Shown here in pieces: positions 11,037 through 36,794 of a stretch of 38,821 nt of DNA; positions within the stretch are counted from its first letter, which is position 1; each line of letters starts with the position of its first letter. The position numbers and the translations under genes are program-made. The notes beneath the pieces were generated by a model. It saw only the letters and a list, made by a program, of their open reading frames with translations. It made no database searches and had not been told where the DNA came from. This DNA comes from a virus (Duplodnaviria > Caudoviricetes), in IMG/VR virus record IMGVR_UViG_3300037467_000469, positions 1 through 38,821 of that record, one strand, 5' to 3'.

Positions 11037-12485
11037 CTACTTGTTCAGAGCGTCGTGCATGGCGCCCGGATCGAAGCCCGGCACCCAGCCGATGTTCTTG
11101 ATGACGACAAAGCGCTTGGCGTTGTAAACGACAGGCATGCCGTACATCAGGATCATGAAGCGTTCCGCCGTAGAAATGCGGGCCAGCGGGAGCTTCATGA
11201 GCGGCGCCAACTGCATGAACCGGACAGCCTGCTCACCGTCGAAGTCGCCTACAAGGCAACGAGACGTGCCGGGAATGTCGAAGTTCTTGTCCACGATGGT
11301 GGTCGTGGCGCCCGCAGTGGCCTTGACGTCGAAGGCGTGCTGAACCTTGTTGCTACCCGGCGCAGTGGAGCGGTAGACCTTGTAGTACCGCACGCCAGCC
11401 GGGTTGTTGACGGTAATGGTGACGGCCTGTCCAGCCGCGACAGCGACAGTGCCCGTGACCGGGACCGACCAGCCCTTCGCGTTGACGGCGACGATGCTGT
11501 AGGTCTGGGTGCCTGCATCGGTGGCGGCGAACTTGGCGGTGGCGTCGGCACCAGCGGTAATGGCACCCGACAGAGTCGGCGCAGACGGGGCGTCCGGGTT
11601 GGAAGCGGCAGTCGGAGCGTTCTCACCCTTCTGGATGAACAGGTTGTTCTCGAAGGGGATCGTGCCGTGCGCCGACTCGTACTTGTTGACCGGGGCGCCC
11701 AGCGTGCCGTTGGCGGCACCCCATGGCGCACGCCGGAAGTTGGTGTTCGGGTCGGTGCCGTCGCCAATGATCAGGGTGGCGAGCGCGGCCTTGTCGTAGT
11801 TGTTCAGGTAGGCGACCTCAGGGACGCCATAGCCCTGCGTGGCGATCAGGTAGGCGGCGGCTTCGAAGACGCCCTCAGTGAGGAACTTACCGCGCATGTC
11901 GATGACGTGCGTCGGCTCGTCACGCTCGATCTGGGCGAACAGGCCGTCCCACTGAAGCGGATCAAGCTGGGAGTCGCCATAGAACAGGGACGACTCGATC
12001 TGCTTGAGCAACCACGTGGTGCCGTCCTGCGACTGCTTGGTGACCATGTCGCCAAGGACGTTCCGGACCAGCGTCGCGCCAAGGGTGATGCTCCGGGTGG
12101 TACCCAAGAACTTCACCAGCGCGGAGCGGCGCTCCCACTGGCTGTCTTCCTCGTTCGGCAGACCGCCGTCAATCATGAACGGCGAGGACTTGCCGCCGAA
12201 GGAGACCATCCGGTTGTACTCCTCGGTCGTGTTGTAAGCGGGCCGCTTGGCAATCCGCTTGTAGAGCTTGACGTGCTTCTCGGTAGCAAGCGACGTCTTC
12301 AGGGTGAGTTCCAGCGACTGCGGACGCAGGACGGACATGTCGCCCGTGTACTGACCATAGGCCTCACCGGACTGGCCCGTACCAAGGGCCTTGTTCAGCG
12401 CGTCAAGGCTCTCGACATGGTCCAGACCCCAGCCAGACAGGTTCAGGTGACCAAACTGCTCAACGCCAAGGACTTCCATGCTCAT
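11037..12485 (-). CDS. Major capsid protein (Twort/SPO1-like), with cleavable N-terminal propeptide
   Basis: LNKALGTG...LRPQSLE..L...KRPAYNT..EYN...IESSLFYGDS...VIDMRG...YYKVYRS resembles the phage K-type capsid, which is matured at VVK/SFQTG as I recall. Confidence 0.92.
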   Translation of the reverse strand: MSMEVLGVEQFGHLNLSGWGLDHVESLDALNKALGTGQSGEAYGQYTGDMSVLRPQSLELTLKTSLATEKHVKLYKRIAKRPAYNTTEEYNRMVSFGGKSSPFMIDGGLPNEEDSQWERRSALVKFLGTTRSITLGATLVRNVLGDMVTKQSQDGTTWLLKQIESSLFYGDSQLDPLQWDGLFAQIERDEPTHVIDMRGKFLTEGVFEAAAYLIATQGYGVPEVAYLNNYDKAALATLIIGDGTDPNTNFRRAPWGAANGTLGAPVNKYESAHGTIPFENNLFIQKGENAPTAASNPDAPSAPTLSGAITAGADATAKFAATDAGTQTYSIVAVNAKGWSVPVTGTVAVAAGQAVTITVNNPAGVRYYKVYRSTAPGSNKVQHAFDVKATAGATTTIVDKNFDIPGTSRCLVGDFDGEQAVRFMQLAPLMKLPLARISTAERFMILMYGMPVVYNAKRFVVIKNIGWVPGFDPGAMHDALNK

Positions 12486-12525: not shown

Positions 12526-13218
12526 TTAGAGGGAGATGCCGATGGCGGCGGCGACGGACGGGGTAAGTTCGCCCGTTACCTCGTAGCGGGTCACATCGCT
12601 GGCGCCAATGGCCCCGGTTTCAACCGCAGAAATCAGCTTAGCCTCAATCTGCGCCCGCGTCGGCCCACCACCCTGCTGGGCACCCTGACCGCTCAGGGAC
12701 TTCTGCAGGGAATGAAGCTGGCGCGTGTCGGTGACCGCCCGGCGCCCGACCGGGTTCTCTGCAAGGCTCTTGATCAGGTCGTGCATCTCCGTGATCTGAG
12801 TCTTCATGGCGGTGTTCTCCTCCATGACGCTCTTGACCGCCTTGCCGACCACGCCAAGGCTCTTAGCAAGCTGGACGTTGAAGATGTTCTGGGCCGACAG
12901 GGACTTGTCCAGCTTCGTCTCGAAGCCATCAACCGTGGCGCCAAGCTGGGTTACAAGGTTCTCAAGGAAGTCGGAGACCTCGAGAACGGTCTCGGTGTCT
13001 TCGTGCGACTTGACCAGATCGGTAACGAAGGACTTCTCGGTGTCTTCGTCTTCCTCACGGGACTCCTCACCGGACTCCTCACCGGACTCCTCACCGGACT
13101 CCTCGTCCTCGTCCGGCTCGTAGTCATCATCATTCGAGACGGATTCCTCCGAGCCGCCTTCAGCCGACTTCAGAAGCTCATCAAGCTCGATATCCAAGCT
13201 CTTAGAAAGATCTACCAT
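12526..13218 (-). CDS. Scaffold protein from internal in-frame start
   Basis: Perfect GGAGGTGA RBS before the in-frame ATG at 13218 (MVDLSKSLD...); acidic, coiled-coil, many x-x-K-S sites. Confidence 0.65.
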   Translation of the reverse strand: MVDLSKSLDIELDELLKSAEGGSEESVSNDDDYEPDEDEESGEESGEESGEESREEDEDTEKSFVTDLVKSHEDTETVLEVSDFLENLVTQLGATVDGFETKLDKSLSAQNIFNVQLAKSLGVVGKAVKSVMEENTAMKTQITEMHDLIKSLAENPVGRRAVTDTRQLHSLQKSLSGQGAQQGGGPTRAQIEAKLISAVETGAIGASDVTRYEVTGELTPSVAAAIGISL

Positions 13219-14064
13219 AGACAATTCACCTCCTGCCAGCTTTTCAGCTAGGCTTTTTAGCAAAACCGCCCGGCTGTAGCCGTAGCGGGCCGCTTCCTCG
13301 GCTACGTCCGGGGCATCTGCCAACAGATACAGGTCTGCGGCGATGCGCTCCGGAGTTAGGGCCTTGGTCAGCTTGCGATTCCGTGCGCGGTGCATGCCGC
13401 CCAGCCAGCGACCAACCACTTGCCGGACCCGCCGGGCAAAATCGTTGTACGCGGCGTTCGGATCCCCAGCGCCTTCGAGACTTTCCGGCATGATGGTAGC
13501 CATGCCGCCAGTGTCCAGTGAGAACTCCAGCGGGTCGGAACTAAAGTCCAACGACTTGGCGATGCGCGCCCATGCGCCCGTATCGACCGGGTTCATGGTC
13601 AGCACCACGTTGCGGATGATCGACTTGGTGACCCTGCCGGGGTCTTTGGGATCACGGGCGCGGGCGCCGCCTTCGATGGAGAAGCCCATCCGGCGACTTG
13701 AACCAGACTTCTCGAGCGTTTCCATCTGCTCAATGATCTGTTTGGTGTACTTGTGCTTGCCATAGAGCATGCCTTTGATGAAGAAGCCATCCGGGGTGAT
13801 CCGGGCCTCCAGCGGTTCCCCGATGAACTGATCCGGCTGAACCAGACCCTTCTTGTCGTGGTGCTCCCACTTGATGTGGCCCTTACTCAGGAAGTAGCTG
13901 TAGTCGATGCCCTCAGGGACCAACTGCTCGTTCTGCTCGTCCCGTTGGCCTGAGTTGGCAACGCCTTCCACGATGACGTTTCCGGTCTCCGGATCGACTG
14001 TGGACTTGGTGATTTCGACGCCCCAAACAAGGCGGTCTTCCGGGCGAATTTCAGCCTCGACCAT
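12526..14064 (-). CDS. Prohead protease fused to scaffold
   Basis: VEGVANS..RDEQNE, KWEH, GFSIEG and VVLT.NPV protease motifs; acidic coiled-coil C-terminal half; likely ATG 14064 after AGGGGGT. Confidence 0.88.
   Translation of the reverse strand: MVEAEIRPEDRLVWGVEITKSTVDPETGNVIVEGVANSGQRDEQNEQLVPEGIDYSYFLSKGHIKWEHHDKKGLVQPDQFIGEPLEARITPDGFFIKGMLYGKHKYTKQIIEQMETLEKSGSSRRMGFSIEGGARARDPKDPGRVTKSIIRNVVLTMNPVDTGAWARIAKSLDFSSDPLEFSLDTGGMATIMPESLEGAGDPNAAYNDFARRVRQVVGRWLGGMHRARNRKLTKALTPERIAADLYLLADAPDVAEEAARYGYSRAVLLKSLAEKLAGGELSMVDLSKSLDIELDELLKSAEGGSEESVSNDDDYEPDEDEESGEESGEESGEESREEDEDTEKSFVTDLVKSHEDTETVLEVSDFLENLVTQLGATVDGFETKLDKSLSAQNIFNVQLAKSLGVVGKAVKSVMEENTAMKTQITEMHDLIKSLAENPVGRRAVTDTRQLHSLQKSLSGQGAQQGGGPTRAQIEAKLISAVETGAIGASDVTRYEVTGELTPSVAAAIGISL
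13060..13104. repeat. 12 bp in-frame tandem repeat encoding EESG
   Basis: Unit ggactcctcacc, about 3.7 copies. Confidence 0.9.
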
Positions 14065-14091
14065 CCGACACACCCCCTAGAAAAACATAAA

Positions 14092-14220: not shown

Positions 14221-14281
14221 TACATCAGGAAGGAAATTCCCCCAAGATGGACGAATTTTGCCCATCAGAGGGGGTTTTCCC

Positions 14282-15378: not shown

Positions 15379-15628
15379 CAGTTTTCACCCCCTTCAGGTA
15401 CGCTGTCGCCTCAGGCGGCGGGGTAATGTCGTGTTGGACCATAGCCGGGGCCAGCTTCTGCCAGATGGCGGCGATGGTCTCCTCACACTTCTGCGGGTCA
15501 TGGGTCATTTCCCGGCGAAAACCGGGGATGCCCTTCCGGAAGTAGTCCACCGTAGCGGCTACTTCCGGGGCGCCCTCACGCTCGATCCCGTTGTACATGG
15601 CGACAGTGAAGCGGGGTTCCTTAGCCAT
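15371..15628 (-). CDS. Hypothetical protein
   Basis: ATG 15628 after GGGAGGG, overlapping the end of the 2106 aa gene; 85 aa. Confidence 0.6.
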   Translation of the reverse strand: MAKEPRFTVAMYNGIEREGAPEVAATVDYFRKGIPGFRREMTHDPQKCEETIAAIWQKLAPAMVQHDITPPPEATAYLKGVKTGG

Positions 15629-18600
15629 GGCGGCGCCCTCCCAGTACGATGACGTGTCGTACAACCCGACTTTCTAGACCAAAGCTCTTCGCCACAGCCA
15701 GTTCCCGTTCCTGCGTGTTGGTGAAGCCGTGCTTCTCACGCAGACGTGCCGCTTGGGCTTCAAACTTCTCGGCCTGCCGGGTCAGGTTCTTCTGGTGGGC
15801 CTTCCATGCGGAACTGCTCAGCATCTCCGTATACTTCTCGGTAACCATCTTCCGCTTATCTGGATCCCAGACCTTGCGGGTGCGCTCTTGGTAGCGCTGG
15901 CCCGCGCTCTTCCGGGCATCCGCCGCCTGTCGCGTCAGGGTGTCGTGCTTGCGCCGTGCCGCCTCAACCGGGTCAACCTTGTCGGTTGCTTGCGCACCAA
16001 AGCGCTTATGCTCACCTGCAAGCGCCGCCTTGTAGCCGGGGCCTTGCGCCGCGTCCCCCACGAAGCCTTCCGCCGCCCGCGTGGCGTTCTCGACGGCTTG
16101 GATGTTGCCAACCTTGCGGTCATGGGCGTTCAGAATGTCGTTGTGGATGGTACCCGGCAGGAACGGCGACTCCACGGAGACCCTGTTATCAGCGCCCAGC
16201 GCCGCACGCTTACCCTTCGAGTCAGAACGCCGGGTACGTGCGACCTTTTGGGCTGTACGCTGGGGGTTCCACTCGTGGTCCAAGCTGATGAAGAGTTGGC
16301 CCGTGCCGAAGTCTTTACCTTCCTTGGCGGCGCTCGACATGATCATGACGTTCGGGCCATTCCGGTCATTGAAGGTAGCGGCGCCCTGATCACGCGTAAC
16401 GGCGTCATCCTCGCCTGTATAGGTGGCGTGCCGTAGCTCCGGGTAATCCCGCTTTAGCTCGTTGACCACGTTCTCGAGCACCTTGGTACCAAGCGCCACG
16501 TACTGGGACGACAGGACCACCTTGGGTGGGACCGGGGACTCGCCAGCCGCCCGGCGATTCTGGTTCAGTTCACGGTTGGCATCCAGATGCTTGCGGATCC
16601 GGTCGCCTACCCACTTCGCCATGGGGCTGTTCTGGTGAAGCGGGATGAACTTACCGTTGTCCATAACGCCATGGAAGCCTGTCTTGGGGTCCGTGTGCAG
16701 GGCGGCAACCGCCGCCGCTTCGGCCCCGGCGTCACCTTCGTCCCCAGCGTTCTTCAGCGCCCGTGCGTAGTCCGTGTGGCGGTGCAGGGCCTCCCACGCA
16801 TCCGGAGCGTTCATGAACTGCTGGAGCTTGTTGACGCCCGACAGGTAACCCGTTGCCGATGACCCAGACCCGTTGTCGTAACCTGTTGCGGCGTCACCAC
16901 GGAGCTTCGAAAGCTCATTGGCACCCAGCAGATCATTCTCGAGCTTGTAGTAGCGGTCGTAGAACTGCCGGGTATCCGGATCGACTTGGTTCAGATCTGG
17001 CGTGTACATGGTGTAGTCGGCGCCGGACTTCAATTGCGCCGTAGTAGGGTTGAAGTACGGGTGGACGGGTACCTTAGCCCCATGGTAGGGATTCGGCTCG
17101 CCCACAACGCCTTCGGGCCGGGTGATCTCGGGGAACTCGACGCCTACGTCTTCGCCCTTGCGGAACTGGACGTACTTCGCCAGCGTCTTGCCCAGATCTT
17201 CCATCTTGTCCGGATGGACTCGAATAACCTTGCCGCCCTTGCGCTCGAAGAAGTTGTTCAGGAACTCTTCCTTCGAACCCAGCCCGTGCTGGCCCATCGT
17301 ACCCATGTTGACAAGGTTCCAAAGCTCGGTCGGGTCGTTCTCCATTGGCGTGCCCGACAGACCCCAGACGTTCTGGACGCCCTTGGCGCCCGCCACATCC
17401 TGCAGGGCCGTACCGCGCGAGCCGTCCGGCTTCTTCAGGTTGTGGACCTCGTCCAGTACCATCGTATCGAAGTCGCCCCCGGTGAACAGGTGCGCGTTCT
17501 TGGCGAAGAAGTCCTGCGAGACAACCACCACGTCATGATCGACCTTCGACATGTCCAGTGGCGCCTTGTCGCTGTGGGGCAAGTAGGGCGCCCGCAGGTC
17601 TTCCGACCCGGTCACGGTGCCGAACATGCCGCCCCGGCCCCCGCTAGGACCGCCGACAACTGCCACCTTGACGTTGGTGTGTCGCTTGAACTCCTTCAGC
17701 CAATCCGACCGAATGCCGGACGGGGCCACGATTACCGACTTCTTCTGGGGCAGGCCTGCGGCCTCAGCCTCAGCCATCTTGTCCAAGATGCCCAAGACGC
17801 CTAGCTGGGTCTTACCCGTGCCCATTCCGTGTCCGGCAACGCCCCGCTTGCGGGTGCGCAGGAAGTGGACGCCCTGCAACTGCGTGTCGTAGAACTTCTG
17901 GGTGGTGAGCTTCGTGGAGTCTTCCTTCAGAAGTCGCTTCAGTGCCTCGGCCTTCTTGCCGCCAGCGGCGATGATGTCAGCAGGCTGGTACTTCGCGGCC
18001 CGCTCTTCCTTCGTCAGGAAGCCCTCGGGCCGGGACTGCTCCTCAAGGTACTTGTTGGTGACCTCATCCGCCTTGTCGGTCAGCGTGAAGCCCCCGAAGA
18101 CCTCGCGGAACTTCTCGAACTGGCTGAGCGACATCTTCGCCTGCCCGTTTTTGTCAACGGGGAGCTTCAAATCCTCAGCAAACGTCTGTCGGAAGGCCTC
18201 CGGCACATGGGCAACCAGATGGTCCTTACCCCAGTCCAGCAGGGGGAGTGACCCGGTCAGCGTGTCCCGTTGCCGTGCATGGGTGATTTGGGCGTTGTCC
18301 GGGCTGATGCGTAGGAGTTGGTCCCCAATGCGCACCCGATAGGCGCCCGTCTTCTCACCGTCATGTACGTACTCGTGGTCGATGACGCCTTCCTGCCACT
18401 TGGACTGACCCTTCAGCCGGAACTTGATCGCGTTGCCCTGTTCATGGGCAACCTTCTTCATCGCTGTGGTCTTAACAGATCCCTCAACCAACTTGCCGTT
18501 CTTAAACAGCGCCTTGGCCTTCTCTGCCGGATCCGTCAGATCGGCGGCGTCAGCGTAGATCTTGCCGTCCCATGGCCCGCCAACCACGGTCGGGGCGCCC

Positions 18601-21600
18601 AAACCGTTAAACTGAAGCTGGATGTGATGGTGGGCACCCTTACCCACAGCCCACTGTGACGGACTGACCGTCACCCACGCCTTGCGTCCGATGGACTGCG
18701 TAATGGCGAAGTCCAGATCAAACTGCGACTGGATGCCATTGGGCATCGAAGACGTGTTCAGCAACTGCCGCATGACCGGATCAGTCGGTTGCCCATCGGC
18801 CCCGATGTGGTACGTGGCGATCCGTCCGTCAGGCATGCGCTTCTTGAACGTAACCGACCCGTCATCTGCTACCTTGGGCACCAAGTCCTCAGCCCGGCTA
18901 AGCTCCTTCTTGACGGCCTTGCGCTGAATGTCAGCGGCGGCGTTGTCCGTCTTGGACAGCACACCGTTCCATTCATCTTCCGTCAGGACCGCCAACTTAT
19001 GGGTGTTCTTATCGGCATAGTCGTTTCCATAGGCCCACTTCTCGAGCAGTTCAGGGAGCATCAAGCCCTTCTTGCCGCCTGTGGTGCCATGGACCTTGTC
19101 GTAGGCTTCCTGCCCACCCTTGGTGCCATAAAGCATGCCCAGCAAGGTGCCGTAGCTTGATTCGTGCTTGGAAACGCCCTTGCCTTCGGCGTCGTCGATG
19201 GACCACACATCGCCCAACTGAGACGTCAGGCCTTCGCCGCCCTTGGCACCCTTGTCAGCGGCCTTGCCCAGTTTGATCTCAAAGGCAACACGTTTCCCAT
19301 CCGGCCCCGTCGCCATGTAGTGACCGGGGGGCAGGTATCGACGCCCTTCCTTGATCTGCTTGAAGTCATCCGTAGAACGGAACTGGTCCCGATGCTCCAT
19401 GAAACGACGCCGAAGTTCGTTCACATCATCGGTGACATGCGCCGTCTTAGCTCCACGGGCCGCTTCCGCATCCTGTTGGGCGATCTCCTCACCAACATCT
19501 TCCGTCTTCTCATGGAAGTTGTGTTCGGCCCGGACCTCGCCTTCGTCGTCGAACTCCTGATGCTTGCCCGACTCCGGGTTGTACCCGGAGTCGGCATCAC
19601 CAGAGTCATAGAGGATAGAAGGGTTGTCCCCGCCCTGAATCAGGATGTGGTGACCGCCCCATGTGATCCACGCAGAACCGGGGTTGTCCTGCAGGAGTTG
19701 CTCCGACCAAGTCAGGGCGCCCGTCTTCCCTTGAAGACGCCCCTGTTGGTCTTTCACATGGGACTCAAATCGTTCCCGGCCTGCACCCCGGACCCAGTCA
19801 CGCACTTTCTGATTGCGCCGGGTTCGGTCTACAGCAGACAGGTGTCCGTGGGTACCCATGGACTTTTCAAGGAAGTCAGCCATGGCGATGGCCTTCTCGA
19901 GCAGGGAGTCAGCGGGCAGGATCGGCTCAGCCAGCGTCAGCAGGATGCCTTCGCCCGGCACCTTGACCATGGTCATGACGTACTCGGTCGGGGGCAAATG
20001 ATCCGCCAGACCATCCAGCGACTTAACCAGCACCTGTCGGGTCGGCGCCCAGTCGCAGACGTCCCGGTCCAGCCCGTAGGCGCCCAGCGCTTCATCCAGA
20101 TCGGCCTCAAAGAGTGCCTTCAGGAGGGTGTTGCCCAACCCAAAGCCCTTCATAACCAGTTCCTTGATGTGCGACACGGCGTCTGGGTTCTTCTGGACAT
20201 GGGCCTGTAGCTTCTTCAGCGCCCGGCTGTACCGCTGACGGGCGTTGTCATGGCTGAGGCCCAAAGCCTGCGCCACGGCGGGGAAGTCCACCAGTTCAGC
20301 CGCCCGCATGCCGGATCCAAGCCCGTGGCGGGCCTGCACAACAGCAAGCTCGTCCTTGGACAGTCCGGCGTCATTCAGGATGGCGTTCAGACCAGCCCGC
20401 TGGGCCTTCCGGACCTCGCCCGCCATGGCCTGCCGCTCGGTGTCATTCTCGCCAGCTACTTGTTCATGCTTGGCAATGGCCTTGTCAGGGCTGTCGGCAT
20501 CCGAGACGTTCCGGTCCAAGCTGGTGGTCTTGTTCAGGTGGTACAGCGACTCCATGGCGGCAACCTTGTCGCCTGTAGCCGTCAGATACTCGCCCCGCTT
20601 GCCCGGCTTCAGGAGCTTGACGTCCGCCCATTCCGGCTTGTTCTTATCCAACCATGCCCCAATGCTCTTCCGATCCGCCGTACCGCCAGCCGCCGCAACT
20701 GCCTTAACGGCCTGATGGTACATGGCGAGCGGCCCGCGAAGCTCACGGGGGAGCTTGATCTGGTCGAACATGCCGTTGCCGTAACGGGACATCCGCTGTT
20801 GGGCGCGGGCGATGGCATAGTTGGAGGGATCCCGCAGGGCCTGCAGGCGCTCCAAATTGCCGTTCTCCTTGTTCTCGTTCCACTCGCGCACGCCTTCAAG
20901 CAGGCCCGTACGGAACTCCTGCGCCAGATCCGAGAAGTAGCCCGTGTCGATGCCGCTGATCTTCTCGTAGGTCTGGACGTGATCCAGACCCTTGGACTGC
21001 ATGAACTTCTTCGCCATGTGGCGGGTCATGCCTTCCATGCGATTGATGAAGTCTTCTTCCGTGACATGCTTCAGCTTCTCGAACTGGACGGGACCGTCCG
21101 GATACGCCCGTACCAGCCGGGGCACCTGTCGCCCAGAAGCGGTCTTCACCATCTCGATCTTCGGGAGCTTGAAGTCGCCTGAGTGGGTGCGGCCCTCGTT
21201 CGGCATCTCCCCGAACATCTCGGCAACCTTGTCCTGCAGACTGGCGAAGTCCTCGCCCGTGGCCTCCTTCAGGTTGGCAACCTGCCCAGAGGCTTCCTGC
21301 TGAATGGTGTCCGGGGTGTTGGTGCCTTCCTTGTACTTGGCGCCCGTACCGATGACCTTGCCCTCAGCCTTGGTCCGGACCAGCTTGTTCTCACCCGTCT
21401 TCTGGTCACGGGTCCATGCTGTGGTCTCAATCGCGGGGGATTCCTCGATGCGCTTCTTCTCTGCGGCCTTCCGGGCGCGCGCGGCCTGCTTGTCAGCCGC
21501 CGCCTTGGCCTCAGCGGCGCCCTTCTTATCCTTCTGGAGCTTCTGGGCAGTAGCCTTACCCGGCTTCAGGGCCTCGGTCGTCTTCTTGGCAGACGTCTTA

Positions 21601-21941
21601 ACAGCCTTGCTTGCGTTGACGTTCTTGGCGGCGACAGCCTGCTTGATCTCCTGCCGCTCAGCCATACCGACCGGAAGCGTTTCGCGGGCAACGGAACCAT
21701 CGGCCTTGATGTAGATGTGGTGCCCGCGCATGGTGCGCCAACTGCCACCGGGGTACTTCTTCTCGATCGCAGATGCGTTGTGACCACCCTTAGCCGCTGG
21801 AGCGGCCTTGGCCTTCGTGGCGGTTGTCTTAGTCTTGGCCTTCGACGTAGATTTGGCGGGTGCGGCCTTAGCCGTCCCCGCCGTCTTCTTCGCCGCCGCC
21901 TTGGCGCCCATCGCCTTCAGTAGGTCATCAGCGAAACCCAT
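15621..21941 (-). CDS. 2106 aa multidomain protein: sigma70-like domain plus SNF2-family ATPase, probably virion-packaged polyprotein
   Basis: Sigma regions 2-4 at ~21063-20200; SNF2 motifs GHGMGTGKT, LDEVH, LSGTP and WNP....Q..AR..R; two W-x-T-x-x-G-x-H modules; clustered x-x-K-[S/A/G] sites between domains. Confidence 0.8.
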   Translation of the reverse strand: MGFADDLLKAMGAKAAAKKTAGTAKAAPAKSTSKAKTKTTATKAKAAPAAKGGHNASAIEKKYPGGSWRTMRGHHIYIKADGSVARETLPVGMAERQEIKQAVAAKNVNASKAVKTSAKKTTEALKPGKATAQKLQKDKKGAAEAKAAADKQAARARKAAEKKRIEESPAIETTAWTRDQKTGENKLVRTKAEGKVIGTGAKYKEGTNTPDTIQQEASGQVANLKEATGEDFASLQDKVAEMFGEMPNEGRTHSGDFKLPKIEMVKTASGRQVPRLVRAYPDGPVQFEKLKHVTEEDFINRMEGMTRHMAKKFMQSKGLDHVQTYEKISGIDTGYFSDLAQEFRTGLLEGVREWNENKENGNLERLQALRDPSNYAIARAQQRMSRYGNGMFDQIKLPRELRGPLAMYHQAVKAVAAAGGTADRKSIGAWLDKNKPEWADVKLLKPGKRGEYLTATGDKVAAMESLYHLNKTTSLDRNVSDADSPDKAIAKHEQVAGENDTERQAMAGEVRKAQRAGLNAILNDAGLSKDELAVVQARHGLGSGMRAAELVDFPAVAQALGLSHDNARQRYSRALKKLQAHVQKNPDAVSHIKELVMKGFGLGNTLLKALFEADLDEALGAYGLDRDVCDWAPTRQVLVKSLDGLADHLPPTEYVMTMVKVPGEGILLTLAEPILPADSLLEKAIAMADFLEKSMGTHGHLSAVDRTRRNQKVRDWVRGAGRERFESHVKDQQGRLQGKTGALTWSEQLLQDNPGSAWITWGGHHILIQGGDNPSILYDSGDADSGYNPESGKHQEFDDEGEVRAEHNFHEKTEDVGEEIAQQDAEAARGAKTAHVTDDVNELRRRFMEHRDQFRSTDDFKQIKEGRRYLPPGHYMATGPDGKRVAFEIKLGKAADKGAKGGEGLTSQLGDVWSIDDAEGKGVSKHESSYGTLLGMLYGTKGGQEAYDKVHGTTGGKKGLMLPELLEKWAYGNDYADKNTHKLAVLTEDEWNGVLSKTDNAAADIQRKAVKKELSRAEDLVPKVADDGSVTFKKRMPDGRIATYHIGADGQPTDPVMRQLLNTSSMPNGIQSQFDLDFAITQSIGRKAWVTVSPSQWAVGKGAHHHIQLQFNGLGAPTVVGGPWDGKIYADAADLTDPAEKAKALFKNGKLVEGSVKTTAMKKVAHEQGNAIKFRLKGQSKWQEGVIDHEYVHDGEKTGAYRVRIGDQLLRISPDNAQITHARQRDTLTGSLPLLDWGKDHLVAHVPEAFRQTFAEDLKLPVDKNGQAKMSLSQFEKFREVFGGFTLTDKADEVTNKYLEEQSRPEGFLTKEERAAKYQPADIIAAGGKKAEALKRLLKEDSTKLTTQKFYDTQLQGVHFLRTRKRGVAGHGMGTGKTQLGVLGILDKMAEAEAAGLPQKKSVIVAPSGIRSDWLKEFKRHTNVKVAVVGGPSGGRGGMFGTVTGSEDLRAPYLPHSDKAPLDMSKVDHDVVVVSQDFFAKNAHLFTGGDFDTMVLDEVHNLKKPDGSRGTALQDVAGAKGVQNVWGLSGTPMENDPTELWNLVNMGTMGQHGLGSKEEFLNNFFERKGGKVIRVHPDKMEDLGKTLAKYVQFRKGEDVGVEFPEITRPEGVVGEPNPYHGAKVPVHPYFNPTTAQLKSGADYTMYTPDLNQVDPDTRQFYDRYYKLENDLLGANELSKLRGDAATGYDNGSGSSATGYLSGVNKLQQFMNAPDAWEALHRHTDYARALKNAGDEGDAGAEAAAVAALHTDPKTGFHGVMDNGKFIPLHQNSPMAKWVGDRIRKHLDANRELNQNRRAAGESPVPPKVVLSSQYVALGTKVLENVVNELKRDYPELRHATYTGEDDAVTRDQGAATFNDRNGPNVMIMSSAAKEGKDFGTGQLFISLDHEWNPQRTAQKVARTRRSDSKGKRAALGADNRVSVESPFLPGTIHNDILNAHDRKVGNIQAVENATRAAEGFVGDAAQGPGYKAALAGEHKRFGAQATDKVDPVEAARRKHDTLTRQAADARKSAGQRYQERTRKVWDPDKRKMVTEKYTEMLSSSAWKAHQKNLTRQAEKFEAQAARLREKHGFTNTQERELAVAKSFGLESRVVRHVIVLGGRRHG

Positions 21942-21953
21942 GGTTAAACCCCC

Positions 21954-23198
21954 CTACTCTTTCAGATCCTTTGGATAAATGATGTGGAGGGATTTTTGGA
22001 CCCCGTTCTCACCCGTGCCGGGGTTGTAGTACCGCTGGACACGGGCGCCAGCGGCCTCATGGATCGGGCCGATGAGCAACCCATGGGGAAGTGCCCGTTC
22101 AGCCTCGTAAATGGTTTGGGCGGTCAGGGCGCCCTGCTGGGGTTGGACCTTCGCCTGCTTGCGTTGCTCGTAGCCGCTGGGTGCCATGGCGTGGGCCTTC
22201 TCCAAAGAAGTGCCCTTAACAACCTGCTTGGTCAGGCCTTGGAAAGCCTTCTGGGGCTGGGTTACGGTGCCCTTGGCGTCGGCCTCCAGCGCCTGCAGGA
22301 ACTTGTCCTGCGCCGCCTTGTCGAAGACAAAGGCCGTCCCGCCGATATTCTTGGCGCCCACCTTGGTGAAGTACTGGGCGGTTTCCGTCAGGGCGTTAAC
22401 CGTCACCCGCTGGCCTGCGGCCTTCTCGAAGACTGCCGCCAGCAAACGAGATCCGGCCCCGGCCTGCGCCGCCTCGGCACCCCGATGGCTGGGTGCCGTC
22501 TCCAAGTACTGCACCGTGTAGCCGCCGTTTGCCTCACCACAGGCCGCGAAGCCTGCCCATTCAGCACCCGACTTCAACCCGATGACGGTTGTGCCGCCCT
22601 CGTCGTCCCCGCCGCCTTGGTCCTGCCCATCTACCAGATCCACCAAGGCCTTACCGAAGTGGACCGGGTAGTCCCCGGACTCCTCCCACTGCTCGACAGC
22701 CCCAAAGATGTCGTCACCGCTGGGATTCTCGTACAGGCCGAAACCCTTCACCCGGTCGTAGGTGGCAAGTCGGCCCTTCGGCTGGGTCTTGCTGGAAGCT
22801 ACAGCAGGCCCAGCCTTCTGGCCTCCGCTTCCTGCGCCCTTGTCCGGGCGAAGATCGTCTGATTTCGCTCCCGCATCCATGTCACTTCGGGACTGGGCGC
22901 CGGGGCGCCCGTCCGCCTGCGCCGTTTTCGGGGCCACGGGCTTCTCTTCCTCCGGATCATGGCGCCCACCCCCCGCCGATTTCAGCAGGTCCACGGTAGC
23001 TAGTGCCTTGATGACCGTGGGGGACCGCAGGTCCATGACGTGGGCCGGGATGTCTTCCCCTGCCGCCTGCAGATCCTGAATGAGCCGGGTGACCACATGA
23101 TCAAGGGCGCCCTGCTCTTCCAGACCCTTGGTGACGGACGGCGAGCGAAGGTAATTAACCCGCTCCCGCAAATCCGCCTTACTGGTGCCTACAGCCAT
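21954..23198 (-). CDS. Protein with GNAT-family acetyltransferase domain
   Basis: YTVQYLETAP..R.......GAGSRLL..VFEKA....VTVNAL.ETAQYF.KVG matches GNAT motifs A/B; flanked by VIKA, LLKS, VVKG, LEKA and VQKS sites. Confidence 0.65.
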   Translation of the reverse strand: MAVGTSKADLRERVNYLRSPSVTKGLEEQGALDHVVTRLIQDLQAAGEDIPAHVMDLRSPTVIKALATVDLLKSAGGGRHDPEEEKPVAPKTAQADGRPGAQSRSDMDAGAKSDDLRPDKGAGSGGQKAGPAVASSKTQPKGRLATYDRVKGFGLYENPSGDDIFGAVEQWEESGDYPVHFGKALVDLVDGQDQGGGDDEGGTTVIGLKSGAEWAGFAACGEANGGYTVQYLETAPSHRGAEAAQAGAGSRLLAAVFEKAAGQRVTVNALTETAQYFTKVGAKNIGGTAFVFDKAAQDKFLQALEADAKGTVTQPQKAFQGLTKQVVKGTSLEKAHAMAPSGYEQRKQAKVQPQQGALTAQTIYEAERALPHGLLIGPIHEAAGARVQRYYNPGTGENGVQKSLHIIYPKDLKE

Positions 23199-23201
23199 GG
23201 C

Positions 23202-26200
23202 CTACTTCGCCCCCTTGGTGGTTCTGGTGGAAGATTTCTTCGTAGCTGAAGGGGTTTCCTTCTGTTCCACGGCGATGGCGGCATTTTGAGCGCTCACCAT
23301 GTTCTTGGCAGTACCTGTGTACTTCTTCTGCGTGGGTCCATGGAAGGTGCTCCAGTCCCATTCACCTGTGCTCTTGTTGTAAGAAACACTGTGCTGGTGG
23401 TCCCCGGTAGCGCTACCCGCATGGTAGTGCTCCATCCCCTTCGACTTGCGCCACGTCCGGTCCCCAACGCGCTCAACCTTGGCAGGCTTACCCTTAACCT
23501 GTTTGGCCTCTTCGGCAAGCTCATACCCGGTCTTGGTAGACTGGGTAGTCGTCTTCTTGTCGGCGTCACGGATGATCGGCTTCTTGCTCATCGCCACATC
23601 AAAGCCGCTCCCGCTTCCCTTGCCATAGAGCTTTTCCATCGCCGCCATGTTGTCGGCCTTGATCTTGGCGTTGCGCTCCCGGTTCAGTTGGGCGCCCGTC
23701 TTAGGCTTCGCCGGGGTCGGCTCAGGCGCCGGGGTCTTCTTGGCCCTGCTGGCCTTCACCGGGGCCTCAGCCGCCGCCTTTGCCGCCGCCTTGGCCTCAT
23801 CAGCCGCCGCCTTTGCCGCCGCCTTGGCGTTCTTCGCCGCCGCACGCTCTTCAGCGGCGCCCTTGGCCTTGGTGTACTGTTCACGGGCCTTGGCAACCGT
23901 TCCGGCGTCGGCGCCCAGCATCTCGAGCACGTCAGCCACGGTCAGCTTCGACCCCACCTTGCCTGCATCGACCCCACCGTCTGACCCAAACACGTCCGAA
24001 ATGATTTTGCCCTTGCGCTCCAGCACGCTCATCTTGCGCTGGTCGATGGAGTTTGCCATTTCAAACTGCTGGTGGTGGAAGTTGTTCTCCTGCCCCTGCC
24101 GATAGCCACGGCCCAGCCGCTGTTCCATCGCCGCAGGGGTCCACTCGTAGTCCAGATCAATGTGCATGTTGGAGTTGGCCTGCAGGTTCATGCCTTCCGT
24201 ACCTGCCTTGGTCATCAAGATGACCTTGCCCTTGCCTGCGTTGAAGTCGATCTCGGCCTGATCACGGGCTTTCTTCGACGTGTTGCCCTGCACGTAGAGG
24301 AAGTCCTTGTCCTTGAAGCCGTGTTCAGCCTTCAACTGCTCCTTCAGGAACTCCAGCGTTCGGGGCGACTGTCCAAAGACGATGGTACCCTTGCCGCCGT
24401 TGTAGTTGTTCTCCTCGTTGGTGCGCTCCCAGTTCGTGGCGATCTGGTCAGCGGCCTCGGCAATCTTGGGCGACGCATAGCCCTTGGTCCGGATCTGCTT
24501 CAGGACCGGGTTTGTGGCCTTGATGCCCATGCCTTCAAGCGCTTCCGGGGTGTCGATCAGTCGGGGGTCGATGGCGATCTGCTCCAGCCGCATTAGCTGG
24601 GTCAGCATGTGCATGTCCACGCTGGCGGCGCCGTCCATCCCTTCAAGCTCCTGAAGCATTGACCCGCGCAGGGCGCCGTAGAGCTTGTTCTGTGCATCAT
24701 CCATGTCCAGAACCGCTGTATCATGCGTCTTGGGCGGCATGGCGATCTTCACGCGGGGATCCTGCTTCTCCAGCATGAAGAAGTAGGGGGCGATCATCTT
24801 GCGCAGGTTCGCACGCTCGTTCGCCTTGACGCCGCAGACCACCTTGGTCTCCCCATCGCCCTTCAGGTTCGGGATGGTCTCGTACTGGGCAAACTTCTGC
24901 ACGAAGCGCTTCTTCTCACCCAGCACGCCGGGGTTCATGAACTCCATGGCCCGGTAGGTCTCTTCCAACTTGTTCATCATGGGGGTTGCGGTCAGCCACC
25001 ACGTGTACTTGGGTGACATGTGCTCGTACGCGGCCTTGGACCGGGCCGACTTGGGATCCTTGAGGTAATGCGCCTCGTCGAAGATGGCGATGTCGTTCTG
25101 CAGTTCCTTCTTGATCTGGGCACCCTCGTTGGTCATGATGGCGTAGCTCATGACCACATAATCAGCCTTCTTGGCCTCCTTGTAGAGCGCCTTGCGCTCT
25201 TCAGGCCCGCCGTCGATCTTCACGACCTTCTTGCCGTTGAAGAACTTGTGGACCTCACGCTCCCAACCGCCCAGTCGGGACGCCGGGACCACGATGACGG
25301 CTGGCCCCTTCGCCTTGCCTTCCTGCTTCAGCTTTTCAGCCGCCAGCAGGCTGGTCAGGGTCTTGCCAAGGCCCGTACCGAAGCCCAGCACGCCCTTCTC
25401 GATGGTGTTCAGGTAGTGGACGCCTGACCACTGGTAACCGTGGGGCTTGATGCCCGCCTTCAGGGTCTTGATCTTGACCGGATCCTCCACCTGTTGAGCG
25501 GCTTCGCCTGCCTTGGCCCGGTCACCCTGTGACTTCAGCTTCTCAGCCAGTGCCGGGTTGTGCTCAGCCATGTTCTTCAGAACACCCTCGGAGATGTTCA
25601 TCATGGGGCCGAACTGCGCGTGCAATTCCTCGATCTGCTTGTGAACCTTGGCAAAGTCGCCCTTGAAGATCCAGATGCCGTTGTGGAAGGCCGTGTCCAT
25701 CTTCTTCACGGCGTTCTTGAAGCTCCGGTGGACCTTGTCGTTGTTGTCGTAGCCCGTCAGCTTCAGACCGATGTAGCCCTTGCCGCCCACGCCAAAGATC
25801 TTCACATCGATCTTCAGGCCTGCGGCCTTCTCAGCCGCCAGACGGGCCTGCATCTCCTCGTAGGTCTCGTAGCCCTTCGCCGCAGGCGGGGGCTGGGTGG
25901 TACCTCCTTGCTGGGCCGGGGCCGGGGCGCCCGGCGCCTCCCCCTTGTACGGGGGCGCCTTGGCGTCATGCCGGAATGAGCCATGGATGCCATTCTCCAG
26001 CATGTACTGCAGGGTCTTGGCGGCGTGCCCGCTGTCCAGCTTGACAGGGATGTGCCAGCCTGTGGCGGCGCCATCCTCCTTCCAGACGGCGCCCAGTTCC
26101 TTCAGGCGGTCCTTGTGCTCGAACGTGTTGTTCTTCTGCCCACTGGCGAGCGCCTTCGGCACGACGAACCAGCCACGGGCGCCATTGCCGAACTGCTTCT

Positions 26201-26489
26201 CAGCCGCCCCGATGATCTTCTCAATCTTGTCGGCTACCTCCGACTTAGTCTTGACCGTGGCGATAGCCGGGGACGATTCCGCCATCACCTCACGGGCCTT
26301 GCGTGCCGCCAAGGTGTGGTGCTCATAGGTCATGCCGGGCCATGCCGTCTCAGGAACGATGCGCCCGTTGTGGACGTAGACATGGCGCCCGTGCATGGTG
26401 ACCCAGTGTCCACCGGGGTACTTGGCGGCGAGTTCTTCGGAGATGCCCTTTGTGAGGACGCTGGAATACCCCTTGATCAACAGGCGCAT
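23202..26489 (-). CDS. SNF2-family helicase/ATPase with N-terminal packaging-like module
   Basis: PHGYQ, GTGLGKT, FDEAH, LTATP, AGTEGMNLQ and WTPAAMEQRLGRGYRQGQ; N-terminus MRLLIKG...KYPGGHWVTMHGRHVY. Confidence 0.88.
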   Translation of the reverse strand: MRLLIKGYSSVLTKGISEELAAKYPGGHWVTMHGRHVYVHNGRIVPETAWPGMTYEHHTLAARKAREVMAESSPAIATVKTKSEVADKIEKIIGAAEKQFGNGARGWFVVPKALASGQKNNTFEHKDRLKELGAVWKEDGAATGWHIPVKLDSGHAAKTLQYMLENGIHGSFRHDAKAPPYKGEAPGAPAPAQQGGTTQPPPAAKGYETYEEMQARLAAEKAAGLKIDVKIFGVGGKGYIGLKLTGYDNNDKVHRSFKNAVKKMDTAFHNGIWIFKGDFAKVHKQIEELHAQFGPMMNISEGVLKNMAEHNPALAEKLKSQGDRAKAGEAAQQVEDPVKIKTLKAGIKPHGYQWSGVHYLNTIEKGVLGFGTGLGKTLTSLLAAEKLKQEGKAKGPAVIVVPASRLGGWEREVHKFFNGKKVVKIDGGPEERKALYKEAKKADYVVMSYAIMTNEGAQIKKELQNDIAIFDEAHYLKDPKSARSKAAYEHMSPKYTWWLTATPMMNKLEETYRAMEFMNPGVLGEKKRFVQKFAQYETIPNLKGDGETKVVCGVKANERANLRKMIAPYFFMLEKQDPRVKIAMPPKTHDTAVLDMDDAQNKLYGALRGSMLQELEGMDGAASVDMHMLTQLMRLEQIAIDPRLIDTPEALEGMGIKATNPVLKQIRTKGYASPKIAEAADQIATNWERTNEENNYNGGKGTIVFGQSPRTLEFLKEQLKAEHGFKDKDFLYVQGNTSKKARDQAEIDFNAGKGKVILMTKAGTEGMNLQANSNMHIDLDYEWTPAAMEQRLGRGYRQGQENNFHHQQFEMANSIDQRKMSVLERKGKIISDVFGSDGGVDAGKVGSKLTVADVLEMLGADAGTVAKAREQYTKAKGAAEERAAAKNAKAAAKAAADEAKAAAKAAAEAPVKASRAKKTPAPEPTPAKPKTGAQLNRERNAKIKADNMAAMEKLYGKGSGSGFDVAMSKKPIIRDADKKTTTQSTKTGYELAEEAKQVKGKPAKVERVGDRTWRKSKGMEHYHAGSATGDHQHSVSYNKSTGEWDWSTFHGPTQKKYTGTAKNMVSAQNAAIAVEQKETPSATKKSSTRTTKGAK

Positions 26490-26501
26490 CGTTGTTACCC
26501 C

Positions 26502-26651
26502 CTAATACGTGACATAGCCTAGCTTGACCAGCAAGGCCCCCAGTTCGTTCCCTCGTGCGGCGCGCTCTTCTGGGGTCATGGTCTGGTCCGTTTGGAGCTT
26601 GCCGACCTCTTCCAAGGCCTCGTTCAGCGTCTTGATATTCGGGTAGTACAC
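26502..26651 (-). CDS. 49 aa small protein (not in ORF track)
   Basis: GTG directly after the upstream TAG; MYYPNIKTLNEALEEVGKLQTDQTMTPEERAARGNELGALLVKLGYVTY; fills the gap exactly up to the next RBS. Confidence 0.6.
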   Translation of the reverse strand: MYYPNIKTLNEALEEVGKLQTDQTMTPEERAARGNELGALLVKLGYVTY

Positions 26652-28805
26652 CTAGCCCACCTTCTTCTGTACCTTAAAGTTGATCGGGACCGGAAGGCGA
26701 TGTGACAGTGGTTTGCTGGTAAGGTAATTCTTCATCCCGGTGTAGATGAGGGCGTTGTTGTCCATATCCTGCAGGCGCGGTTCCCAATAGGCGCGAATTT
26801 CGTCCATCGTCCCCGGACGCCACAACCCAAATTCACCGTCCAAGACATCGCTTGCCGCGCTCCACATGGAAGGATGCGGGCAGTCCACAGCGCCACCGGG
26901 TCCATTTACAAGCGCATGCGAAAACGGATTGGTCATGGACTCGATAGCCATAGCCCATTCCTCATCGTATGAGGGCGGCAGGTCAGGTCGTACAGCCCGT
27001 AAATGGGCCTGACAGGCTAACTGATGTGCCGTTAACGGCGCCCGATTCTGGACGAGGGCCGCCGCTTTCTTGTTGAACTCTCCCCACTCACGCTTCAACC
27101 AGTTCTCCTGCAAGGAATGCAGGTACTCATGGGTGTAGACGTTCTCCATGCGGGATGAGTTCATGCCGTTCTTTTTGCCATGCGGGAAGACCATTTTGTT
27201 CAGTGACGGGCTGTAATAGGCATTCGGGTTAGGGTCTACGTGACCGCTGTCTGGGGAATAATAGCTGAGTTCCACCCCGGACCCCAGACGCATCCAAGAC
27301 GGTAGGCGGTCCAGCCCACTGGCGGCGGTCGCCAGTGCGCCCGCATCGGGGGACCATGTACCCGCAGGCTTGCCTGTCGGGTAGTTCTTTGGGGGGTACT
27401 TCTTTGGATCCAGCGAACTGGTTCCGTACATACCAGCCCACGCGCCTTTGGTCTCGATGCCTGTAATGCCGTGCTCATAGACCAGATAAGCGGAAAGAAT
27501 CATCCGGTCCACGTAGTCCTGCTGGATGGGTAACGAGGCGCCCTGTGGCCCATATTTTCGAATGGCGTCCATGGCCTTCTTGTCCGCCTGTACCAGATCT
27601 TCAGCTTCTCTAAACGACTTCGGCGGTTTGTTACCAGCCAGTCGGACCAATTGCTGAACAGCCTCAAACGTGCCAAAAGCGTCCTGCGCCGCAGGCAGAT
27701 CCATCAGGGCGGGCTTTTGACCCTGTCCCACGATCTTGGGCAGTTCTCCCACACCCTTGCGCACGGCGCCCAGCATGTTGAACAGAGCCATCTGCGACAG
27801 CCATGTCGCCCGTTCCGCCCGGTGGGCGGCGGTATCCAAAGCCTTCTTTTCCTTGACCGTCAACTGAACACCCTTTTGAAGCAACTCAACGTGATGATGC
27901 GCCAGATCCATCGACCAGTCCATCATCTTCATGATGTCCAGTGCGTCCCGCAACTGGTCCCACGGGGCGTCCTGCCACTGCTTGATGCGGTCATAGGTCC
28001 GCGCGATGGGATCACCCTTAGCCTTCACCTTGGCGGTTGCTTTCGGCTTGGCTTCCTTCTTGGCCTTTGCCTTCTCGAGCTTCTGGATGTTCTTGGCCTG
28101 CGCTGGAGTCAGCGCCCGCTCAATGAAAGATTGACCATCCATGGAAAGGCCGGACACACCGCCCCGGCTGTAGTAGACAGTGCCCTTAGACACGCGGTCA
28201 ACAGTACCAGCGCCAGAATCCAGCATAACCCTGTCATGGAAGACCATGCCCTTCTTGGGGTTGAAGGGGTCCAACTTGGGCGCCGCCTTAGGCTTCACTT
28301 CAGCCTTGGCGGGCGTCTTGGCCTTGGTTTGCGCCGGGGGTTCACCCTTCTTGTTGATCTTGGTGGTGACCAGCGCCGTCTTGGTTTTCGACGCGGCTTT
28401 AGCCGGGGCCTTCTGGGCGCCCGGCTTTTCCGTCTTCGTTTTGGTGGCCTTTGGTTCCGTTTTGGTGGCCTTTGGTTCCGTTTTGGTGGCCTTTGGTTCC
28501 GTTTTGACCTTGGTCGTCTTCGCCATGGCCTTCTTCGCCGCCTTGGGATCCGGGGCCAGTTCGGGTTCCCCCCGGCGTTCCGCCAGCCGTTGGAGACGTG
28601 CGGTCGTCTCACCCGGAGTCGCTTTGGCCTTAGCCTGCTTGGCGGGCGCCGTCTCCGGGGCTGGGGTGCCATCCTTGCGGATGTAGACGTGGCGCCCCCG
28701 CTCCGTAACCCAGTGCCCACCGGGGTACTTAGCTTCCATGTCGGCGCCGACACCCTTGATCAGGTCCAGCGGGATGACATCGAAACCCTTGATTAACAGG
28801 CGCAC
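26652..28805 (-). CDS. Lys/Ala-rich protein with C-terminal zincin metallopeptidase domain
   Basis: GTG 28805 after AAGGAGGGG (MRLLIKG...); NAYYSPSLNKMVFP...HEYLH...EEWA is a gluzincin-like arrangement. Confidence 0.7.
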   Translation of the reverse strand: MRLLIKGFDVIPLDLIKGVGADMEAKYPGGHWVTERGRHVYIRKDGTPAPETAPAKQAKAKATPGETTARLQRLAERRGEPELAPDPKAAKKAMAKTTKVKTEPKATKTEPKATKTEPKATKTKTEKPGAQKAPAKAASKTKTALVTTKINKKGEPPAQTKAKTPAKAEVKPKAAPKLDPFNPKKGMVFHDRVMLDSGAGTVDRVSKGTVYYSRGGVSGLSMDGQSFIERALTPAQAKNIQKLEKAKAKKEAKPKATAKVKAKGDPIARTYDRIKQWQDAPWDQLRDALDIMKMMDWSMDLAHHHVELLQKGVQLTVKEKKALDTAAHRAERATWLSQMALFNMLGAVRKGVGELPKIVGQGQKPALMDLPAAQDAFGTFEAVQQLVRLAGNKPPKSFREAEDLVQADKKAMDAIRKYGPQGASLPIQQDYVDRMILSAYLVYEHGITGIETKGAWAGMYGTSSLDPKKYPPKNYPTGKPAGTWSPDAGALATAASGLDRLPSWMRLGSGVELSYYSPDSGHVDPNPNAYYSPSLNKMVFPHGKKNGMNSSRMENVYTHEYLHSLQENWLKREWGEFNKKAAALVQNRAPLTAHQLACQAHLRAVRPDLPPSYDEEWAMAIESMTNPFSHALVNGPGGAVDCPHPSMWSAASDVLDGEFGLWRPGTMDEIRAYWEPRLQDMDNNALIYTGMKNYLTSKPLSHRLPVPINFKVQKKVG
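28437..28506. repeat. 21 bp in-frame tandem repeat encoding KTEPKAT
   Basis: Unit cgttttggtggcctttggttc, 3 full copies plus a partial copy. Confidence 0.92.
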
Positions 28806-29187: not shown

Positions 29188-29205
29188 AGCGTTCAGCCTC
29201 CTTGG

Positions 29206-29670: not shown

Positions 29671-29687
29671 GTTGGGCGCCCCCTTCC

Positions 29688-33101: not shown

Positions 33102-33119
33102 AGTCCTGCGCCCCCTTCG

Positions 33120-33449: not shown

Positions 33450-33628
33450 TAGGGCTTCACCTCCCGAAGGTGCGGTGTCCACATGTTGTTGGTAATCCAG
33501 TTGTGGACGGTTTCAACAGGGATTAGCTGGAACGTGATGCCCTTCTGCTGGGCAATCAGCCGGGCGCCCTTGCGCTGGGGCGCCATGGTGATGTCCTTAA
33601 CGTTGGGTTGGATCCGCAGGCCCTTCAT
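33449..33628 (-). CDS. 59 aa hypothetical protein
   Basis: ATGA overlap with the MuF stop and TAATG overlap with the next gene. Confidence 0.5.
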   Translation of the reverse strand: MKGLRIQPNVKDITMAPQRKGARLIAQQKGITFQLIPVETVHNWITNNMWTPHLREVKP

Positions 33629-36770: not shown

Positions 36771-36794
36771 CGCTATTTCAGCCCCTTACATGAC

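Follow-up and report, generated by a model that had tools for sequence, protein, structure and literature searches.

A W-x-T hairpin heading predicted head-packaged cargo proteins in a Twort-like phage locus and in other head types

Phage polyvalent proteins (Iyer 2017, PMC5512222; 2022, PMC9503650) are described as large multidomain proteins that are encoded beside virion genes and predicted to be packaged and injected, their domains including SWI2/SNF2, zincin metallopeptidase (MPTase), GNAT, ART, InPase, RadC and 2H as well as MuF fusions. In T4, the internal proteins and Alt are a varied cargo whose members share a single short and conserved N-terminal signal for the scaffolding core, and lysines of the internal proteins contact the packaged DNA (PMC3012670). 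DarA, DdrB and DarB of P1 are packaged in the head and partly processed, include an SNF2-type helicase and a zincin, and have a packaging signal at the DarB N-terminus (PMC9024508, PMC5512222), while MuF ejection proteins and toxins (80alpha gp44, PMC7290940; PMC3482391) are head-internal, DNA-associated and ejected, and also occur as effector fusions. All statements on these papers refer to the sections of them covered here. We describe a cluster of four cargo genes in a 38.8-kb virus record (IMGVR_UViG_3300037467_000469; the window hereafter, to whose full length all coordinates refer) and a short module, the W-x-T hairpin, which is shared by three of the encoded proteins and recurs beside head genes of several types.

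Gene context, conserved cut-site clusters, cargo swapping and a wider family of relatives make it very probable that these proteins are packaged in the head with processing, as modular cargo, as the initial annotation of this DNA had proposed; the part of that proposal which is less well supported is its reading of the hairpin as an address tag. With modest confidence we favor a two-signal model in which a hydrophobic strand would recruit each precursor, the protease would free its segments, and the hairpin would keep each segment with the DNA and lead it out. More tentatively, unrelated head types may share interchangeable N-terminal "ejection leaders", such as the W-x-T hairpin and HPRxxxGxF, which are distinct from the packaging signal and select which head-internal proteins exit with the DNA, and the phage family of the window may inject a ready-made sigma factor and SNF2 motor, allowing transcription with the host polymerase and no prior phage gene expression. 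If true, finding the leader in a sequence would predict an injected effector, and the leader would provide a portable delivery tag. Outside T4 and P1, little is established on how phages choose internal proteins for retention and ejection, and a 20-residue header tracking the mature N-terminus over Twort-, HK97-, DUF2213- and SPP1-type heads makes the question directly testable. Moreover, hundreds of domains that lack annotation would become candidates for injected proteins of anti-defence or host takeover. A sigma factor carried in the virion would add to the means of jump-starting phage transcription, which include virion RNA polymerases and Alt-type modification.

The cargo proteins and their shared hairpin

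The morphogenesis operon of the window lies on the minus strand and comprises a MuF-like gene, a five-gene insert, the four cargo genes, small open reading frames (ORFs), a fused protease-scaffold gene, the gene for the major capsid protein (MCP), and neck and contractile-tail genes. Its head genes are Twort/SPO1-like. The cargo genes, located between the MuF and prohead-protease genes, keep the same order in relatives; close relatives are uncultured phages of 94-111 kb. The features are listed below (aa, amino acids; an arrow marks a predicted cut).

26652..28805, minus: 717-aa cargo protein; propeptide, hairpin, Lys/Ala-rich linker, C-terminal zincin-like metallopeptidase (HEYLH, aa 559)
28755..28805, minus: predicted removable propeptide of the 717-aa protein; hydrophobic strand, K6↓G and K17↓G
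28650..28733, minus: W-x-T hairpin of the 717-aa protein
23202..26489, minus: 1095-aa cargo protein; propeptide, hairpin, SNF2 ATPase with intact motifs, Lys/Ala-rich tail
26448..26489, minus: predicted removable propeptide of the 1095-aa protein; hydrophobic strand, K6↓G and K14↓G
26346..26426, minus: W-x-T hairpin of the 1095-aa protein; predicted short helix and beta-hairpin, pLDDT 88.5
21954..23198, minus: 414-aa GNAT-like cargo protein; 6 K sites, C-terminal hydrophobic strand behind QK↓S, no W-x-T module
15621..21941, minus: 2106-aa predicted polyprotein; hairpin and sigma-70-like domain, cut-site spacer, hairpin and SNF2, C-terminal strand
21675..21761, minus: W-x-T hairpin, first copy of the 2106-aa protein, about 50 aa after K9↓A
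20166..21089, minus: sigma-70-like domain, regions 2-4; 39/39 PDB matches are sigma factors
19842..20165, minus: spacer of the 2106-aa protein; 5 K↓[SAG] sites (K598, 608, 640, 683, 693)
19602..19694, minus: W-x-T hairpin, internal copy of the 2106-aa protein; W758 (19670), 65 aa after K693
16224..17918, minus: SNF2 ATPase of the 2106-aa protein
15624..15695, minus: C-terminal hydrophobic strand of the 2106-aa protein behind VAK↓S, a candidate removable address
33625..35187, minus: MuF-like minor head protein; C-terminal ParB-like domain behind a K site
12526..14073, minus: prohead protease fused to scaffold, Twort-type (phrog_1028 and 15087); 9 K sites, N-terminal hydrophobic strand and K↓S
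11037..12485, minus: MCP (phrog_752); LNK32↓A33 aligned to K24↓S25 of phage 812

All four ORFs, the three large neighbors with the module and the GNAT protein between them, are present on the minus strand as first described; Lys/Ala-rich stretches are a feature of the three module proteins that the GNAT protein, which has the K sites (6) and lacks the module, does not share. A six-frame search of the window for the core W-x-T-x2-G-x-H-V-Y-I gave 4 occurrences, all inside the three cargo proteins. The three copies given initially, with starts at 21761, 26426 and 28733, are thus confirmed, while the ARET end of the 2106-aa copy lies at 21678 and not at 21690, and a fourth copy, with W758 (19670) inside the same protein, had been overlooked. 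A fifth, long-loop copy near aa 1090 of this protein gave no score with the profile and was rejected. The identical MRLLIKG start ascribed to two of the proteins holds only if the GTG at 28805, which begins the 717-aa protein and is preceded by a ribosome-binding-like run, is read as Met.

AlphaFold predicts the hairpin as a short helix followed by a beta-hairpin (pLDDT 88.5). No significant match was found in Pfam, PHROGs, PDB sequences, BFVD, PDB folds or the Atlas, although a model of 36 residues is too small to make this absence firm (the best BFVD match had E 0.53 and the best PDB fold Z 2.4, and Atlas features gave nothing).

Regarding the catalytic bodies, the two SNF2 domains, both with Walker A/B and motifs III and VI kept, and the sigma-70-like domain stand as annotated; the zincin call has no Pfam match and rests on HEYLH and Atlas neighbors (among them zincin clusters and polyvalent ArdC/YodL proteins), and the GNAT match is weak (E 0.015 in the window protein, 0.0011 in an orthologue). 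The 2106-aa protein joins a sigma-70-like domain to an SNF2 domain, and in each of the other three cargo proteins one catalytic domain is recognised. Its sigma-70-like region spans residues 285-592: a profile of 11 orthologues matched 39 PDB sequences, all of them sigma factors (best E 1.7e-5), with the alignment running along SigA regions 2-4, and Sigma70_r3 was found in 9/11 of these orthologues and r4 in 2/11. Foldseek gave E 1e-5 with a TM of about 0.2 on a mediocre model (pLDDT 63). In the closest complete relative, this was the single sigma-like ORF found by profile among 108 crudely called ORFs. The prediction of this region as sigma-70-like is supported by these comparisons. The 717-aa protein has an orthologue in L006, the closest relative, in which propeptide, hairpin and a portion of the linker are retained ahead of an unrelated body.

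Within the sections of the literature covered here, the window cargo resembles polyvalent proteins in its two SNF2 domains, zincin and weak GNAT match, in the disparate domains joined in the 2106-aa protein, and in the location of its genes among head genes, near MuF; hairpin relatives elsewhere carry LPD1 (19/138), ART-type (15/138), InPase and RadC domains. However, PMC5512222 proposes cutting mainly by a protein's own zincin whereas the window sites match the prohead protease, and the common (not required) module of SNF2, adenine methylase and LPD36 was not found with the window SNF2, no DNA methylase or LPD36 partner being matched in P0001 or P0002. The hairpin itself matches no Pfam LPD model. 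Compared with T4, the window counterpart of the capsid-targeting sequence would be the removable strand, not the hairpin, and the T4-type head differs from that of the window, with its phrog_1028 protease, phrog_752 MCP and sites after Lys. The T4 prohead is cut after Glu, and we know of no retained header shared by T4 internal proteins. For P1, whose capsid is cut at E↓S, the authors saw no consensus among the Dar N-termini, and no sigma factor appears among these proteins in the parts covered. Herelleviridae (Twort/SPO1-like) have a homologous protease, scaffold and MCP and K↓S sites, but phages 812 and TsarBomba run portal, protease, scaffold, MCP with no MuF-sized gene or large cargo between. 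Unlike MuF proteins, window-type cargo is mostly encoded as separate genes, each with its own small header.

The initial annotation knew of no description of this combination. Packaged SNF2, zincin and GNAT domains are known (PMC5512222), and the hairpin and sigma are not in the parts of that paper covered, the word "sigma" having no occurrence in its main text (supplements not covered). Literature searches returned no description of the hairpin, of its placement rule or of a head-packaged sigma factor, although word searches catch motifs poorly and subscription papers and the PMC5512222 supplements lay outside them. The class of packaged cargo is known, whereas the hairpin, its placement rule and the predicted packaged sigma factor are apparently undescribed.

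Spread and placement of the hairpin

A 16-sequence profile (E <= 0.001) searched against 1.84 billion representatives matched 173 clusters. Among the 150 listed, five (P0027, P0053, P0123, P0126 and P0134) were dropped as false; the remainder yield 207 copies in 138 proteins, with window, near-identical and seed proteins left out. L027 and L045, from the first pattern scan, were also dropped (scores about 12; a long gene downstream of the capsid gene). Internal copies make up 124/207, and more than one copy is present in 57/138 proteins. In 79/207 copies the 30 aa upstream of the hairpin contain a strict K site, compared with 16 for random positions and 12 for the downstream side. Pfam assigns a name to 75/138 proteins: LPD1 19, ART-type 15, SNF2 11, sigma 7, portal 7, GNAT 5, Acb1/2H 5, Zeta 5, RadC 5, MuF 4, InPase 4, topoisomerase IB 4, zincin 4, DUF2213 1 and a few others; these are the domains known from polyvalent proteins (PMC5512222, PMC9503650). 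The module is found on varied fusion partners and next to head genes: the roughly 170 clusters include portal, MuF, ART and polyvalent domains, all 14/14 profile matches in 5 complete related genomes fall within the head cluster, and at other loci the neighbors are terminase, portal, MuF, scaffold or MCP genes.

At L063:6448-10057 (minus), four tandem genes between terminase and portal each begin with a hairpin and have unrelated bodies. In proteins of other lineages the hairpin follows xNL↓S (P0014, P0022, P0069, P0095, P0097, P0110), E-H/Y-A (P0057, P0100, P0117, P0136) or LRR↓S (P0006) repeats, motifs that are candidates for further protease specificities.

By pattern scans of viral contigs, 91 distinct copies were obtained and then classed by head markers within about 10 kb. 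The Trp lies no more than 21 residues from the start in 18/19 copies in SPP1-like loci, where no protease was seen within about 10 kb on each side, compared with 3/33 in Twort-, HK97- and DUF2213-type loci, the Twort-type class often being assigned from MuF/portal homology with the protease not in view. Counted by locus, a near-start hairpin was found in 13/14 SPP1-like and 2/23 protease-type loci, and the 19th SPP1-like copy has an in-frame Met 10 residues before the Trp. In several SPP1-like loci, none of the genes from portal or MuF over scaffold to capsid evidently resembles a protease. In the Twort-type class 18/22 copies come after K sites, and DUF2213-type copies follow N/H sites in 4/4, the proteases and scaffolds of the latter repeating xxN (by eye). 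A metagenome scan added 23 new copies (23 duplicates were dropped), near the start in 2/2 SPP1-like versus 0/4 protease-type copies, with 17 unclassed. The simplest summary of these placements would be that the hairpin heads the mature polypeptide.

Cut sites, recruitment and the role of the hairpin

The K-site pattern, hydrophobic-x-K↓[SAG], was chosen after inspecting the sequences, and the numbers expected were obtained from shuffles. The four cargo proteins hold 20 sites vs 8.6 expected and the protease-scaffold, MCP and MuF together 12 vs 2.3, while 11 tail/neck proteins hold 1 vs 4.1 and 14 other window ORFs 3 vs 2.4; taken singly, only the protease-scaffold (9 vs 0.8) and the GNAT protein (6 vs 0.6) are significant. 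The K sites said to precede each module are accordingly borne out by their position and not by their number, as the counts of the three module proteins are individually not significant (p 0.15-0.2) and the signal lies within the first 25 aa and, in the 2106-aa protein, in a cluster of 5 sites in 100 aa (p about 0.0003). Several pattern matches fall inside folded domains, so that the motif alone does not define a cut and accessibility must matter.

The K/S site attributed to Twort-like capsids agrees with our comparison: the phage 812 MCP minus residues 1-24 (K24↓S25) has 439 aa, the same length as PDB chain 9ROW, and K32↓A33 of the window MCP aligns to this position. No statement of a Twort-type K↓S cut was found in the literature covered, which included PMC3601020, and the point rests on this length, the alignment and the scaffold counts, which are 7 such sites in 812 and 8 in TsarBomba vs about 1 expected. 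The window protease motifs WEHH and GFSIEG, the conserved His and Ser motifs, align with those of both phages. The sigma/SNF2 spacer (110 aa) contains 5-7 K sites in each of 11 orthologues, most of them ~20% identical, with a density over the 11 of 5.4 per 100 aa vs 0.3 in the sigma domain and three positions kept in 11/11; 92 ORFs outside the head genes of a relative carry no surplus (32 vs 27). From this conservation, and from the lack of excess elsewhere, we infer that the prohead protease would release sigma and SNF2 as two products, both with a hairpin at their head.

A hydrophobic strand lies upstream of the K site in 44/49 K-type N-termini vs 6/28 other window genes. A similar strand is found behind a K site at the C-termini of the 2106-aa protein, the GNAT protein and a relative's portal, and N-terminally on the protease itself. 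In 18 orthologue rows of the 2106-aa protein (near-duplicates included) the leading header is W-x-T for 7 rows, while 9 have HPRxxxGxF and 2 a variant of the latter; the header slot is conserved across these orthologues and the peptide is not. The term "shared address tag" is therefore not the best reading for this phage: the W-x-T hairpin is probably not the packaging address, because it lies downstream of the predicted cut, occurs in internal copies, is fused to portal, MuF and protease proteins that would reach the head without one, is lacking from the GNAT protein and is exchanged for HPRxxxGxF in orthologues. The better candidate for an address is the removable hydrophobic strand next to the K sites. 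In the cultured phage fHe-Yen8-01 (OR620963.1, L184:15811-23556), with a MuF/K-site head, a 2146-aa ART protein and a 272-aa protein begin with a strand and K↓A, have no hairpin, and carry the label particle-associated in the phage record.

Cultured phage ECML-606-1 (OL631484.1, L185:6612-14721) encodes a 2253-aa protein which, like the 2146-aa protein of fHe-Yen8-01, has the start MLVLAK↓A, and smaller K↓A-led proteins are present near the head genes of both phages too. Other short headers seen in the post-cut or N-terminal slot are HPRxxxGxF (39 contexts), GGPGSG (L067) and a VRAH-type basic hairpin (P0065, P0067, P0107, P0148); contexts with alternative headers include P0018, P0058, P0093, P0111, P0153, L010, L064, L067 and L118.

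According to the two-signal model, a removable hydrophobic strand beside K↓[SAG], N- or C-terminal, would bring the precursor to the procapsid in the manner of the T4 capsid-targeting sequence, and the phage head protease would cut precursors after Lys inside the procapsid. The retained hairpin, often with a Lys/Ala-rich linker behind it, would hold each piece to a partner, most likely DNA, and from its place at or near the new start of the freed piece would lead it out with the genome. DNA is the likeliest partner since no other component is shared by all these head types, the charge evidence being slight. Cutting is predicted to yield two hairpin-led pieces from the 2106-aa protein, sigma (about aa 10-598) and SNF2 (from about aa 694), along with another hairpin-SNF2, a hairpin-zincin and the GNAT protein. 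Once injected, the sigma factor would let host RNA polymerase begin phage transcription at once, the SNF2 motors could clear or remodel the incoming DNA, and the zincin and GNAT may act on host proteins.

Several observations weigh against this model. HK97-type copies match the K pattern in 1/7 only, 39/91 copies are unclassed by head type (5 of them near the start), and the counts by head type (18/19 vs 3/33) are not independent because hairpin copies are related, so that p-values overstate. Loci with no protease in view are compatible with a host protease; the head of 80alpha is processed by one. Both hairpins of the 2106-aa protein are 50-65 aa past the nearest K site, net charge after the Trp is just +0.05 per residue and positive in 68% of copies, and acidic residues stand immediately upstream in many. 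The particle-associated label that the fHe-Yen8-01 record gives to strand and K↓A proteins is liberal, covering terminase and methyltransferases too. No cultured carrier of the hairpin was found in 50,697 phage records (tblastn of three module variants, best only E 7) or in a six-frame profile search of 7 cultured phage loci. Finally, in protease-less heads the hairpin may be the address, because it is the only shared N-terminal element of the stand-alone proteins there.

Extended to all heads, this last idea makes the hairpin itself the encapsidation address, binding a procapsid component while the K sites merely trim linkers, which we consider unlikely. It would account for the zincin and ART bodies of SPP1-like loci (terminase-portal-scaffold region), which share only the N-terminal hairpin and stand four in tandem in L063, and the 30 residues at the N-terminus of P1 DarB suffice for packaging (PMC9024508, as far as covered). 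However, the window GNAT protein has no hairpin, an address would be redundant on portal, MuF and protease fusions, and the module occurs once per polyprotein segment (57/138 proteins with >=2 copies) and in head types with unrelated portals and capsids.

Somewhat less likely again is docking of the hairpin on a protein of the head or tail (portal, MuF or the tail-tube entrance), with the cargo threaded N-terminus first and no DNA binding. The strict mature-N-terminus preference suits a threading signal, and MuF is present in 13/14 Twort-type and 3/3 DUF2213-type loci; against this, L063 has no MuF-sized gene between portal and scaffold, none was found in L016 or L032, and the portals that a single conserved peptide would need to recognise are very divergent. 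A universal receptor role for MuF is also weakened, as it was found in 4/14 SPP1-like and 1/6 HK97-type loci by a motif check that misses divergent MuF families.

An action after injection, capping the new N-terminus against host proteolysis or binding a host factor, is improbable: a compact fold at the mature start of cargo with very different activities would suit it, but the carriers range from low to high GC (0.41-0.60) with differing head types, and a hairpin often 10-65 aa past the cut is loose for a cap. That the proteins are late cytoplasmic, non-virion factors with merely compositional K motifs is hardly credible, since, although helicases and sigma factors are normally cytoplasmic and the K-site counts of the three module proteins are individually not significant, the site clusters are conserved in ~20%-identity orthologues and the module occurs on portal and MuF and is confined to head clusters.

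Relatives and neighboring genes

No tyrosine integrase was found in the 5 complete relatives (serine integrases were not searched for), and GTDB genomes gave 0 matches to the strict module pattern and no relative of the window MCP. The ParB-like C-terminal domain of the window MuF, located behind K sites, is missing from 11/12 aligned relatives, which makes this MuF a candidate cargo fusion itself.

Three adjacent Tad2-like genes (Thoeris anti-defence 2, PF11195) lie upstream of MuF at 36240-37829 (minus), with similar ORFs in relative L002. The insert between MuF and the cargo genes, at 28819-33482 (minus), encodes proteins of 122 aa, 154 aa (M78-like), 732 aa (LamG), 404 aa (repeat-rich) and 120 aa; relative L006 has a single 123-aa ORF at this position. 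Directly after the zincin gene there is an unlisted ORF of ~49 aa (about 26502-26651, minus), possibly a cognate inhibitor, which is absent from L006, itself without the zincin. An MT-A70 methyltransferase gene at 14258-14848 (plus) lies on the opposite strand within the late operon, and a stand-alone phrog_419 ORF at 15088-15378 (minus) looks by eye like the PGDYG-like domain inserted in the GNAT protein of the relative (L006:10314-12110). The window tail sheath (6203-7327, minus) has only 374 aa, compared with 591 aa in fHe-Yen8-01.

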